DNA of 32,000 bases, from contig CAKOYB010000003.1 of assembly GCA_934130435.1 (NCBI GenBank), positions 37,994 to 69,993 of the forward strand, read 5' to 3'. Numbering within the stretch: position 1 is the first letter of the stretch; every line of letters starts with the position of its first letter. The DNA is from an uncultured Clostridia bacterium. Lineage in GTDB: Bacteria; Bacillota; Clostridia; TANB77; CAG-508. The position numbers were made by a program, and so were the translations under genes. Below the pieces are notes generated by a model. That model was not told the DNA's origin. It was given only the letters and a program-made list of their open reading frames with translations, and did no database searches. Shown piece by piece: positions 19,228-21,341 of this stretch.

Positions 19228-20109
19228 TTAGTTAGCCCAATTTTTTATAATTTCAGTTGGTATTTTCATATTTCCTTTTCCAATGGCCATTTCAATTCCA
19301 CGTTTATTTTTACCATGATAATCTGATCCACCACTCATTAAATAATTTCTTTCTTTGCAAATCTTTTTTAAGTATTGAATATTATCACTATTAAATTCAC
19401 TGTGATAGCATTCTATGCCATCAACTTTATATGTTGATAATATTTCCTCTATTAATGCATCTATATCATCTGCCCATTTATATATAAATAGATGAGGCAG
19501 AAAGACCAAACCATCACATTTTTTTACTGCTTCAATTGCCTCTTTTACACTTGGATAATCAGCACTTTTGTCTATGTATAAAGTATGTGTTTTGTCCCCG
19601 CAATACTTTTTAGAAAATGTATTAAAATCATTCCAAAAGTCTTCTGGTACCTTATTTTTATTTTCTAAATGTTTCTTTATTTCTTTATATATTGCTATAC
19701 TTGCCCAATCTTTTTTATTATCAAATTCTACCATTTCTTTTGGGCTTAAATATAGTCCTATTTCTAAACACTTGTTATAAAGCATATCAAAATATTTTTG
19801 TTGAAGTATATCCTTTGTTTTGTTTGCATAGAATTCGTCGCACCATTTTTTCATCTTGTCAACATCTATTTTGTAACCTAATATTTCTATTAATCTTCCA
19901 TTATGTGCACATTTAATTTCAATTCCTGGAATTATTTTTCCTGTATAATATTCCTTTACGTCGATTTTTTTCATTTCCATATATCCGTTACAATTATCAT
20001 GATCTGTAATTGAAATATACTCTAATTTATTTTGTTCTGCCTTTTTAAGAACTTCAATCAGGCTGTCTGCTCCATCTGAGTATGTTGTATGTATATGTAA
20101 ATCTATCAT
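19228..20109 (-). CDS. PHP-domain metal-dependent phosphoesterase (TrpH/YciV-like)
   Basis: I take the start as the ATG at 20109, with GGAGG at 20115-20119; the track used an upstream TTG. The PHP motif set is complete: DLHIHTTYSDG, ITDHD, GIEI, LPH, CYH and GGSDYHG. The RBS begins 4 nt after the zeta-like stop. Confidence 0.85.
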   Translation of the reverse strand: MIDLHIHTTYSDGADSLIEVLKKAEQNKLEYISITDHDNCNGYMEMKKIDVKEYYTGKIIPGIEIKCAHNGRLIEILGYKIDVDKMKKWCDEFYANKTKDILQQKYFDMLYNKCLEIGLYLSPKEMVEFDNKKDWASIAIYKEIKKHLENKNKVPEDFWNDFNTFSKKYCGDKTHTLYIDKSADYPSVKEAIEAVKKCDGLVFLPHLFIYKWADDIDALIEEILSTYKVDGIECYHSEFNSDNIQYLKKICKERNYLMSGGSDYHGKNKRGIEMAIGKGNMKIPTEIIKNWAN

Positions 20110-20123
20110 ATATACCTCCAAAA

Positions 20124-21080
20124 CTATTTCTCTTGTTGAAGTAAGCGTTCCTTTTTAAATTCTACTTCTAATTCATCTAATCTAACTAATTGTGCATTAA
20201 TTCCGTTTTTTCTAACTCTTTCTCTTAGTATTTCTATTCTTTTAAGATATGCTTCAGGATTACTTAATAGCTCTTGCCTATTTCTAGTTCTCTGTGTTAC
20301 AACAGCTTCTACTGCTGAAGAATATCTACCATCTCCTGCTACGCAAATTAATTCTGGTTTGTCTATTGAATATCCTCTTTTAAATACTCTGATAGTATTA
20401 AATAATTCCTTGTTTTCAATTACTTTTAATGTATCTAAAAGTTTTTCATATGCATAGTCATGATTTTGTGGTGTAACAACTCTTGGAGGTAAGTCGTTTT
20501 CTCTAAAATATTGCTCTCTTTCATAGCATGATAATAAACTTTCAAATCTATCAACAGCTAAAACATTTATTTCTATATTATAATTTCCCTCTATTGTTTT
20601 TCTTTCTCTTGTTCCATCTTTTTTTATATGTCCAATATCTGCTTCTCCGCCATTTTTTTGAAAATCTAATATTTTTATATATCCATCTGTATTTCCAAAA
20701 GTTCCTTCTTGAACAAGATTATTTCGTAGTTCAACGGCTCTTTGTCTTAAAAAAGTATCTAATGCTGGTTGAACAAATCGTTGCAAAATTTTATATGATG
20801 AATCTGGAAATTCTTCTAATATCTCTCTATAATACTTATGGTAAACTGCAATTTCATCTGGATTAAACTCTGTATATCCAGTAATATCGCCCTTATCTTG
20901 AGCTTCATTTATTAAAAAACTTTTTAACCCTGTTTTACCAGCTCCAGCCTGAGCAACAGCAAATATTGAATATGGTTTTTCTACTTTCTCGCTTTTCATA
21001 AATGTTGCAATTTCAGCCATCATTAGACACCTGTTATACTCATCATTTGTTAGATCATATTTAGTATCATTATTTTCCAC
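20124..21080 (-). CDS. zeta-toxin family P-loop kinase
   Basis: 318 aa. Walker A is AQAGAGKTG. It also has EFNPDE and VQEGTFGN blocks characteristic of zeta/PezT-type kinases. The GTG start is preceded by AAAGGAG at a 6-nt spacing. It overlaps the upstream small ORF by 11 nt. Confidence 0.85.
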   Translation of the reverse strand: MENNDTKYDLTNDEYNRCLMMAEIATFMKSEKVEKPYSIFAVAQAGAGKTGLKSFLINEAQDKGDITGYTEFNPDEIAVYHKYYREILEEFPDSSYKILQRFVQPALDTFLRQRAVELRNNLVQEGTFGNTDGYIKILDFQKNGGEADIGHIKKDGTRERKTIEGNYNIEINVLAVDRFESLLSCYEREQYFRENDLPPRVVTPQNHDYAYEKLLDTLKVIENKELFNTIRVFKRGYSIDKPELICVAGDGRYSSAVEAVVTQRTRNRQELLSNPEAYLKRIEILRERVRKNGINAQLVRLDELEVEFKKERLLQQEK

Positions 21081-21297
21081 TTTTTTCTCCTTTAACTTCT
21101 TCCAAATAAACAGTTAAAACTTTATTAATAATATTTTCATCCTTTTTATATATCATTTCTTTTTCATTAGTTAGCTTATTTAGTTCTTCTTTAAATTTAT
21201 TGTAATCTTTTTCTTTGTTATTCTTTATTGTATCTGCAATTTTTAAATTAATTACATATAAAGCTAAATCAAATCTGTTATCTTCTATTTTTATCAC
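21070..21297 (-). CDS. small helical protein, putative cognate antitoxin (epsilon-like by position only)
   Basis: About 75 aa, Lys/Glu-rich and predicted helical, overlapping the zeta-like gene in the typical type II toxin-antitoxin arrangement. The exact start is uncertain because the GTG at 21297 overlaps the AAGGAG. I recognise no sequence similarity. Confidence 0.5.
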   Translation of the reverse strand: MIKIEDNRFDLALYVINLKIADTIKNNKEKDYNKFKEELNKLTNEKEMIYKKDENIINKVLTVYLEEVKGEKSGK

Positions 21298-21312
21298 TCC
21301 TTATTTTTTATA

Positions 21313-21341
21313 ATTATATTACTATTTTGTTGTTATTTCAA
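21313..21341 (-). promoter_or_regulatory. sigma-A type promoter of the small-protein / zeta / PHP operon
   Basis: On the minus strand: TTGAAA (21336-21341), exactly 17 nt, then TATAAT (21313-21318). It lies immediately downstream of the FtsX-fragment stop. Confidence 0.55.

Follow-up and report, generated by a model that had tools for sequence, protein, structure and literature searches.

A zeta-toxin-like kinase encoded next to a phosphatase in a conserved three-gene unit of uncultured gut Clostridia

We analyzed a 32,000-nucleotide (nt) stretch of DNA from an uncultured Clostridia bacterium (contig CAKOYB010000003.1 of assembly GCA_934130435.1, positions 37,994 to 69,993; hereafter the window) which contains, at 19228-21341 on the minus strand, three co-directional, tightly packed genes. 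In the order of transcription, these genes encode a small helical protein, a kinase related to the zeta toxins and a PHP-domain phosphoesterase. Comparison of this locus with its counterparts in other genomes reveals that the small gene, the kinase gene and the PHP gene form a conserved unit, and the zeta-like kinase is very probably coupled functionally with a phosphatase. Zeta and PezT kinases constitute a major toxin family, and the substrate is unknown for most of its members.

Genomic linkage of the kinase and phosphatase genes

A scan of species-representative genomes yielded 56 loci (individual loci are denoted below by L numbers), mostly in metagenome-assembled genomes (MAGs) that represent uncultured Clostridia of the gut, for example, CAG:780 and CAG:492; the counts that follow are for distinct loci in which the kinase clearly belongs to the family considered here. 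The PHP gene is located immediately downstream of the small gene and the kinase gene in about 22 loci, and in 5 others the order is PHP, small gene, kinase, for a total of about 27 loci with a PHP partner when counted from the kinase side; a gene for a HAD-family protein takes the place of the PHP gene in 5 loci, and 2 have neither. Kinase homologues with 78% and 64% identity to that in the window belong to the same trio and are surrounded by entirely different genes. The contexts of the trio include rplL...mfd (L001), AMP-binding...thrS (L005), LOG...sigma factor (L066) and FtsX...rex (the window and L078); altogether, the kinase and PHP genes are adjacent, in one order or the other, in six or more unrelated contexts. 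When sampled from the PHP side, all 3 of 3 homologues have the small gene and the kinase gene upstream. In a metagenome survey of 80 PHP loci, binned by identity to the PHP protein of the window, the small gene and the kinase gene are present in 10 of the 13 loci at 53% identity or more, and a kinase gene is adjacent in none of the 67 loci at 47% or less; the linkage is limited to a specialized PHP subfamily. The first-pass annotation of this DNA, made from the sequence alone, had proposed the kinase and the PHP protein as a candidate module and had named, as the opposite possibility, a PHP gene that is syntenic with rex in relatives lacking the kinase. The two genes turned out to be neighbors in many genomes and contexts, as expected of functionally coupled genes, and in other species the PHP gene travels with the kinase gene and not with rex. 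A distinct arrangement was observed in L034 (3579-6789), where a PHP gene is followed by two tandem zeta-like kinase genes, with the small gene 5' of the second.

The loci with a HAD protein (L009/L015, L010, L014, L023 and L027) contain no PHP gene within 6 kb, and a gene for a protein of approximately 155 amino acids (aa) with the DMDGV motif adjoins the small gene-kinase pair. Two of the four HAD sequences tested passed the cut-off of the Pfam family NT5C (5'(3')-deoxyribonucleotidase), with 25.5 and 25.7 bits versus 24.8; one sequence gave a weaker match to HAD_PNKP (21.6 bits), and HAD_SAK_2 was also matched weakly. In a neighbor-joining tree of the kinases, built without bootstrap, the HAD-linked members occupy at least 3 separate positions, and the HAD-linked L010 is the sister of the PHP-linked L001. 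Because two unrelated phosphatase folds fill the same operon slot more than once, the kinase appears to need a phosphatase activity; the swap would otherwise be hard to explain. The repeated replacement of the third gene by a gene for a non-homologous HAD/NT5C-like phosphatase thus provides strong indirect support for the third protein being a phosphatase that opposes the kinase.

It could be argued that the small gene and the kinase gene are an ordinary two-gene toxin-antitoxin pair of the zeta type that merely happens to be often located beside an unrelated, resident PHP gene. Such an arrangement would fit the loci that have the PHP gene only, in two of which (L084 and L092) an FtsX-type permease gene is followed directly by PHP, matching the order in the window, as well as the decayed PHP remnant next to rex in the copy of a duplicated segment of the window that lacks the kinase gene (see below). 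However, a chance neighbor would not be expected to accompany the kinase gene in multiple unrelated contexts and in both orders, or to be included with the pair in an element that interrupts the yabG gene; furthermore, where PHP is absent, another phosphatase takes its place repeatedly, and only one specialized PHP subfamily is linked to the kinase. We consider this explanation very unlikely.

The genes of the unit also differ in the way they decay and diverge. The kinase gene is broken next to an intact PHP gene in four loci (L011, with an in-frame stop codon; L030 and L072, with frameshifts; and L033, with a frameshift and a deletion), whereas an intact kinase gene beside a broken PHP gene was found in no locus examined. 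Three of the 13 loci of the linked PHP subfamily (L084, L086 and L092) are PHP-only; in L084 (952-4885) and L092 (1710-4888), an FtsX-type permease gene and the PHP gene follow each other without the small gene or the kinase gene, echoing the FtsX-[small-kinase]-PHP order of the window. The reverse, a kinase gene without a phosphatase gene, is nearly absent among the loci. Judging from the sequences, this asymmetry is a toxin/antidote pattern. Across the loci, the kinase and the small protein (25-78% identity) diverge much faster than the PHP protein (52-78%).

The trio is strain-variable, being present in some and missing from other strains that share 98-99% identity, and is sometimes carried beside recombinases. 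In L068 and L069, a 4.3-kb segment that carries a 46-aa open reading frame (ORF), a large serine recombinase gene and the trio splits a yabG-like sporulation protease gene (Peptidase_U57); in L068 (1128-6281), the two halves of yabG encode a 152-aa N-terminal and a 122-aa C-terminal part. This insert looks like an intervening element of the skin type, with the trio as its only cargo. In L070, a tyrosine integrase gene is adjacent to the trio.

The three proteins and a possible mechanism

The kinase gene (20124-21080, minus strand) encodes a 318-aa protein that is a genuine member of the zeta/PezT family. The protein matches the Pfam family Zeta_toxin (PF06414) with 80.6 bits versus a cut-off of 22.3, and a profile of 19 homologues compared with the PDB retrieved PezT (2.9e-15) and zeta (3.2e-14); these matches extend over the two halves of the kinase domain. 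The top Foldseek match of the AlphaFold2 model (pLDDT 93) is zeta (1GVN_B; E 1e-13, target TM 0.76), followed by PezT (2P5T) and, more distantly, AvrRxo1 (E about 3e-5, TM about 0.46); the kinase domain of PFKFB is also among the matches. The key residues comprise the Walker A motif (Q44-G51; 20928-20951), the catalytic D75, E125-G-T127, R188, R200 and H207-D208, of which K49 of Walker A (GAGKT) and all those outside this motif are invariant across the 19 homologues; in the alignment with zeta, D75 corresponds to the catalytic Asp67, and R188 and R200 to R158 and R171. The first-pass annotation had correctly recognized the family from the intact Walker A and EGT motifs and had listed UDP-GlcNAc as the known substrate of zeta and PezT. 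In those proteins UDP-GlcNAc is bound by the GTXR motif (PMC6362051); here the respective position reads E-G-T-F-G-N/S, with Arg replaced by Gly in the whole family. Because GTXR reads GTFG, UDP-GlcNAc is unlikely as the substrate, and the kinase probably acts on a different one.

The C-terminal extension of approximately 100 aa initially ascribed to the kinase is relative to the short Pfam model: zeta itself consists of 287 aa, and about 306 columns of the kinase model can be aligned with it by Foldseek. What the kinase truly has in addition is a ~25-aa insertion (residues ~137-165) and C-terminal helices that span roughly 30-65 aa. The family is small: a search of 1.84 billion representatives yielded 40 clusters at E<=1e-30. 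No kinase-PHP fusions were found among the long matches in the representative library, all of which are either kinases in tandem or polyvalent proteins encoded by conjugative elements; phage records and IMG/VR contain no close relative of the kinase, and plasmid records contain only proteobacterial zeta proteins with less than 26% identity to it.

The small gene (21070-21297, minus strand) encodes a 75-aa protein with 46 homologues, none of them annotated, and contains no Pfam or NCBIfam domain. The AlphaFold2 model (pLDDT 88) consists of three predicted helices (4-25, 32-50 and 54-73); the best PDB matches have E 0.44 in the profile comparison and E 2.6 with Foldseek, and neither epsilon nor PezA is listed. 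The small gene is located 5' of the kinase gene in essentially all loci and is always found with it. The product is a candidate protein-level inhibitor (antitoxin) or adaptor of the kinase.

The PHP gene (19228-20109, minus strand; ATG at 20109, stop codon ending at 19228) encodes a 293-aa protein that scores 39.5 bits with Pfam PHP (PF02811; cut-off 26.4). The complete set of metal ligands noted at first reading is invariant among the homologues at all nine positions (H5, H7, D12, H37, E64, H206, H236, D263 and H265). The nearest PDB relatives are 9ETK, 7UG9 (RNase AM), 3E0F and 2YB1 (Cv1693, a 3',5'-bisphosphate nucleotidase). The scores with the closest NCBIfam equivalogs are far under the cut-offs (78.3 versus 375 bits for RNase AM, also known as RNase RNM, and 76.9 versus 400 bits for the 3',5'-nucleoside bisphosphate phosphatase); the protein thus belongs to the TrpH/RNase AM/Cv1693 branch but is an equivalog of neither RNase AM nor Cv1693. 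The kinase-linked subfamily has invariant residues of its own, namely C67, W135, C170 and N268, with W212 near-invariant (11 of 13 sequences); C67 and C170 are not kept in the unlinked relatives. Four cysteines (C40, C67, C170 and C234) are invariant in the kinase-linked proteins and may contribute an additional metal or redox site; in the case of three of these, a metal ligand is 2-3 residues away. We regard the PHP protein as a candidate phosphatase for the product of the kinase. In L031 (2952-4073), the PHP ORF is 373 aa long, with a match to the small-protein profile over its last 55 residues (positions 6-62 of 70 in the profile; 12.9 bits); this ORF is either a PHP-small protein fusion or the result of a stop codon lost in a MAG.

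The relationships of the PHP and HAD proteins bring up the possibility of nucleic-acid end processing, in analogy to T4 PNKP or Grc3/Rat1, such that the kinase would act on 5'-OH ends of RNA or DNA, and the PHP or HAD protein would remove 3'-phosphates or 2',3'-cyclic phosphates, or else PHP would degrade 5'-phosphorylated RNA like RNase AM. Indeed, the nearest characterized relatives of the PHP protein include RNase AM, a 5'-3' exoribonuclease (7UG9), the swapped-in HAD proteins show the weak matches to HAD_PNKP and HAD_SAK_2, RNA-repair HAD domains, and a kinase combined with a HAD phosphatase is the layout of T4 PNKP. However, the best matches of the kinase are the small-molecule kinases zeta, PezT and AvrRxo1, the 50 Foldseek matches listed include no polynucleotide kinase, and no ligase (RtcB, Rnl) or Hen1 gene is present near the trio in any neighborhood examined. 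End processing would also leave the obligatory small partner and the pattern of kinase pseudogenes unexplained, and we consider it quite unlikely.

We propose, with about even confidence, that the trio is a tripartite toxin-antitoxin-like module that consists of a toxic kinase, a small protein inhibiting this kinase and a phosphatase that undoes the product of the kinase. Given the catalytic residues and the fold, the kinase would use ATP to phosphorylate a hydroxyl of a nucleotide-type metabolite; the 3'-OH is the likely target, by analogy with zeta, which phosphorylates UDP-GlcNAc, and AvrRxo1, which phosphorylates NAD, on a substrate that is probably not UDP-GlcNAc. The translationally coupled three-helix protein would bind the kinase and hold it in check, a role suggested by its size and position and by the fact that it invariably accompanies the kinase. 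The PHP protein or, in some lineages, the HAD/NT5C-like phosphatase would strip the phosphate added by the kinase, serving as an enzymatic antidote or a reset; we infer this step from the conserved linkage, from the displacement of PHP by a non-homologous protein and from the 3'-phosphatase activity known for the closest relatives of the PHP protein. In a more specific form, which we advance only tentatively, the trio would represent the first case of an enzyme dedicated to reversing the product of a zeta toxin. The toxicity of the kinase would stem from phosphorylation of the 3'-OH of a nucleotide metabolite that is not UDP-GlcNAc, and the specialized PHP protein or the interchangeable HAD protein, as an enzymatic antitoxin, would provide a two-layer antidote along with a new protein inhibitor unrelated to epsilon. 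If this is the case, the two-layer antidote possibly serves the stabilization of mobile elements or abortive infection in gut Clostridia. The candidate defense role suggested initially is possible, as with all toxin-antitoxin-like modules, but the observations provide no support for such a role: no match to the trio was obtained in PADLOC, there is no defense-island context around it, and the kinase is absent from the phage and IMG/VR records.

Several observations weigh against the proposed toxin-antitoxin-like module. None of epsilon, PezA and AvrRxo1-ORF2 showed detectable similarity to the small protein in PDB profile or Foldseek comparisons, and the small protein contains no DNA-binding domain, so that autoregulation is left unexplained. 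Nevertheless, the missing similarity to epsilon does not exclude an antitoxin role because the fold of the antitoxin of the gonococcal zeta toxin is unrelated to epsilon as well (PMC5923241). In L016, the small gene and the kinase gene are present with no phosphatase gene within 6 kb, and some of the kinase pseudogenes could be metagenome assembly errors. The PHP protein may have a function of its own because it is highly conserved and survives alone in the three PHP-only loci; in L084, the gap between the FtsX and PHP genes is 25 bp, with no room for a deleted kinase gene. In the window, the genes flanking the trio are housekeeping genes, and the GC profile is uniform, without a foreign-DNA signature. 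None of the three proteins, nor the adjacent FtsX fragment, matched a PADLOC-DB v2 family at E<=0.01.

Some of the same observations would fit a non-toxic metabolic or regulatory pair, a lineage-specific housekeeping function in which the kinase and the phosphatase jointly control how much of a phosphorylated nucleotide or cofactor is present and the small protein is a regulator. Such a pair would form a substrate cycle or a signal, with PFKFB and the deoxynucleoside kinase/5'(3')-nucleotidase cycles as models; enzymes of the NT5C type are participants in cycles of this kind. Compatible with this possibility are the high conservation of the PHP protein, with its subfamily-specific invariant residues, the housekeeping chromosomal context with uniform GC, the wide spread of the module in one clade of gut Clostridia and the presence of PFKFB among the Foldseek matches. 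The variable presence of the module between strains 98-99% identical, the repeated pseudogenization of the kinase, the location inside a recombinase element interrupting yabG, the very fast divergence of the kinase and the small protein relative to PHP, and the small size of the kinase family all argue against it. On balance, we view a metabolic pair as unlikely.

A phosphatase partner that co-evolves with the kinase narrows the chemistry of the latter to the formation of a phosphomonoester that can be hydrolyzed by both a PHP protein of the TrpH/Cv1693-like type and an NT5C-like HAD protein. It also provides a direct biochemical handle, with the kinase making the product that the partner removes, and if the phosphatase is indeed an antidote, the neutralization of toxins by product reversal would also apply to kinases. 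Abundant uncultured Clostridia of the human and animal gut commonly carry the module, which is among the few cargo genes of a minimal element that interrupts a sporulation gene.

Operon signals and segmental duplication in the window

The tight coupling of the three genes and the consensus-like promoter described in the first-pass annotation both hold. The small gene and the kinase gene overlap by 11 nt (21070-21080), and the ribosome-binding site (RBS) of the PHP gene, GGAGG at 20119-20115, begins 4 nt past the kinase stop codon TAG (20126-20124). The sigma-70-like promoter TTGAAA-17-TATAAT (21313-21341, minus strand), 5' of the small gene, matches the consensus at 11 of 12 positions and is the best promoter-like match in 18900-21600; as a class, promoter-like sites are not enriched in this AT-rich region (22 versus 19 +/- 4 in shuffles). 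Just 5' of the -35 hexamer is ATTGCAAT, a perfect 8-bp palindrome at 21342-21354 on the minus strand, which could be an operator. In most of 16 loci, the small gene and the kinase gene overlap or are separated by a gap of at most 11 nt; the gap in L028 is 57 nt. The list of ORFs places the start of the PHP gene at a TTG at 20121, but the homologues begin with MIDLH at the ATG. At the start of the small gene (21292-21302, minus strand), the GTG codon directly abuts AAGGA of its RBS, and an ATA codon 9 nt past the start is kept in several homologues, with ATG in its place in L014 (L010, L014, L016 and L068 were compared); because of this configuration, the translation start of the small gene appears to be atypical or weak. 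No extra regulator gene was detected in the operon with Pfam and NCBIfam, in the window or in the homologous loci, and an Rfam scan of the window revealed no RNA family and hence no riboswitch clue to the metabolite.

The trio is flanked by two near-identical direct repeats of 3032 bp (16236-19267 and 22347-25378; offset 6111, 2 mismatches). Copy 1 contains the 5' part of a PP2C gene, a hydS-like sensory hydrogenase gene, a 2Fe-2S protein gene, rex and the 3'-terminal 13 codons of PHP. The cassette had initially been taken to be exactly the cargo between the repeats, consistent with horizontally acquired DNA. This is a misreading of the repeats, which are a segmental duplication of housekeeping genes joined at a 10-bp microhomology; the unique DNA between them (19268-22346) includes a 5'-truncated FtsX permease gene and excludes the last 13 PHP codons, and the GC profile gives no foreign signature. 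The FtsX/MacB-type ABC permease gene is represented by its 3' part (21355-22346, minus strand), which encodes the FtsX C-terminal domain and is cut at the duplication junction; this fragment is context, outside the module. The close relative L078 has the full 981-aa FtsX gene along with an ABC ATPase gene.

At the junction (22347-22356), the 10-bp microhomology GATATTCCAA (minus strand) is common to the PP2C and FtsX genes; homology to L075 and L078 extends to 22356, and the repeat begins at 22347. L074, L075 and L078 (98.9-99.2% identity) contain one contiguous copy, and the gene order in these relatives is HD, two ORFs, ABC ATPase, 981-aa FtsX, small gene, kinase, PHP, rex, hydS, PP2C. In the window, the upstream repeat copy is preceded by dtd, iscR, nifS, nifU and a decayed remnant of the PHP 3' end (25339-25422, minus strand), which is located between nifU and the second rex gene and has a W codon changed to a stop and indels beyond 25378. 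Because this remnant is present, the allele without the trio appears to have once had a PHP gene beside rex. The simplest reading of these features is a Campbell-type or microhomology-mediated recombination of two alleles, with and without the trio.

Two other explanations of the repeats were considered and rejected. They are not the ends of a mobile element, being duplicated rex-hydS genes for which the relatives have one contiguous copy, and the arrangement of the window is not an assembler chimera, given that the junction has only 10 bp of microhomology and is spanned by a 100% identical contig (maybe from the same sample). The PP2C/SpoIIE gene (15276-16438, minus strand), 3' of the hydS-like gene, is split into three overlapping ORFs (45, about 160 and about 201-233 aa), and the same split is seen in L072, L074, L078 and every close relative, so that this is either a conserved frameshifted gene or a pseudogene.

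Comparison with known systems

Full-text literature searches found no description of zeta or PezT with a PHP protein or another phosphatase, and a 2023 review of PezAT diversity nowhere mentions a phosphatase; the first impression that a zeta version with a downstream PHP enzyme had not been described was borne out by these searches and by PADLOC. Within the literature, PADLOC, phage and plasmid searches, the trio is an undescribed three-component variant of the zeta/PezT kind. It shares with epsilon/zeta of pSM19035 and with PezA/PezT the zeta fold, the Walker A motif, the catalytic Asp, the EGT block and the two Arg residues, as well as the location of the gene for a small helical protein directly upstream of the kinase gene and overlapping it, and the character of a chromosomal accessory module. 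Unlike these systems, the trio has a third gene that encodes a phosphatase (PHP or HAD); furthermore, its kinase lacks GTXR and has the ~25-aa insertion and the extra C-terminal helices, and its small protein has neither detectable homology to epsilon or PezA nor a helix-turn-helix, with no omega repressor encoded.

Among the more distant systems, AvrRxo1 is a zeta-like kinase that phosphorylates the 3'-OH of NAD and not UDP-GlcNAc (PMC5491322). AvrRxo1/Arc1 (AvrRxo1-ORF1:ORF2) resembles the trio in that a zeta-like kinase is neutralized by a small helical partner, for which the small protein is a candidate here; unlike the trio kinase, AvrRxo1 is a type III secreted effector without a phosphatase partner, and its similarity to the trio kinase is much weaker than that of zeta. 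TrpH/YciV (RNase AM) and Cv1693 share with the PHP protein the fold, the nine metal ligands and a helical insertion, whereas the subfamily to which the PHP protein belongs is set apart by invariant Cys and Trp residues and is the only one linked to the kinase. T4 PNKP similarly couples a P-loop kinase to a phosphatase, and the HAD variant weakly matches HAD_PNKP; in contrast to T4 PNKP, the trio encodes separate proteins, its kinase is closest to small-molecule kinases, and there is no ligase partner. In the DarT/DarG system, the antitoxin enzymatically reverses the modification introduced by the toxin, the ADP-ribosylation of DNA. The protein families and the chemistry, phosphorylation in the case of the trio, are unrelated, and the trio additionally encodes a separate small protein; the likeness lies only in the proposed logic, whereby a co-encoded enzyme undoes the product of the toxin.

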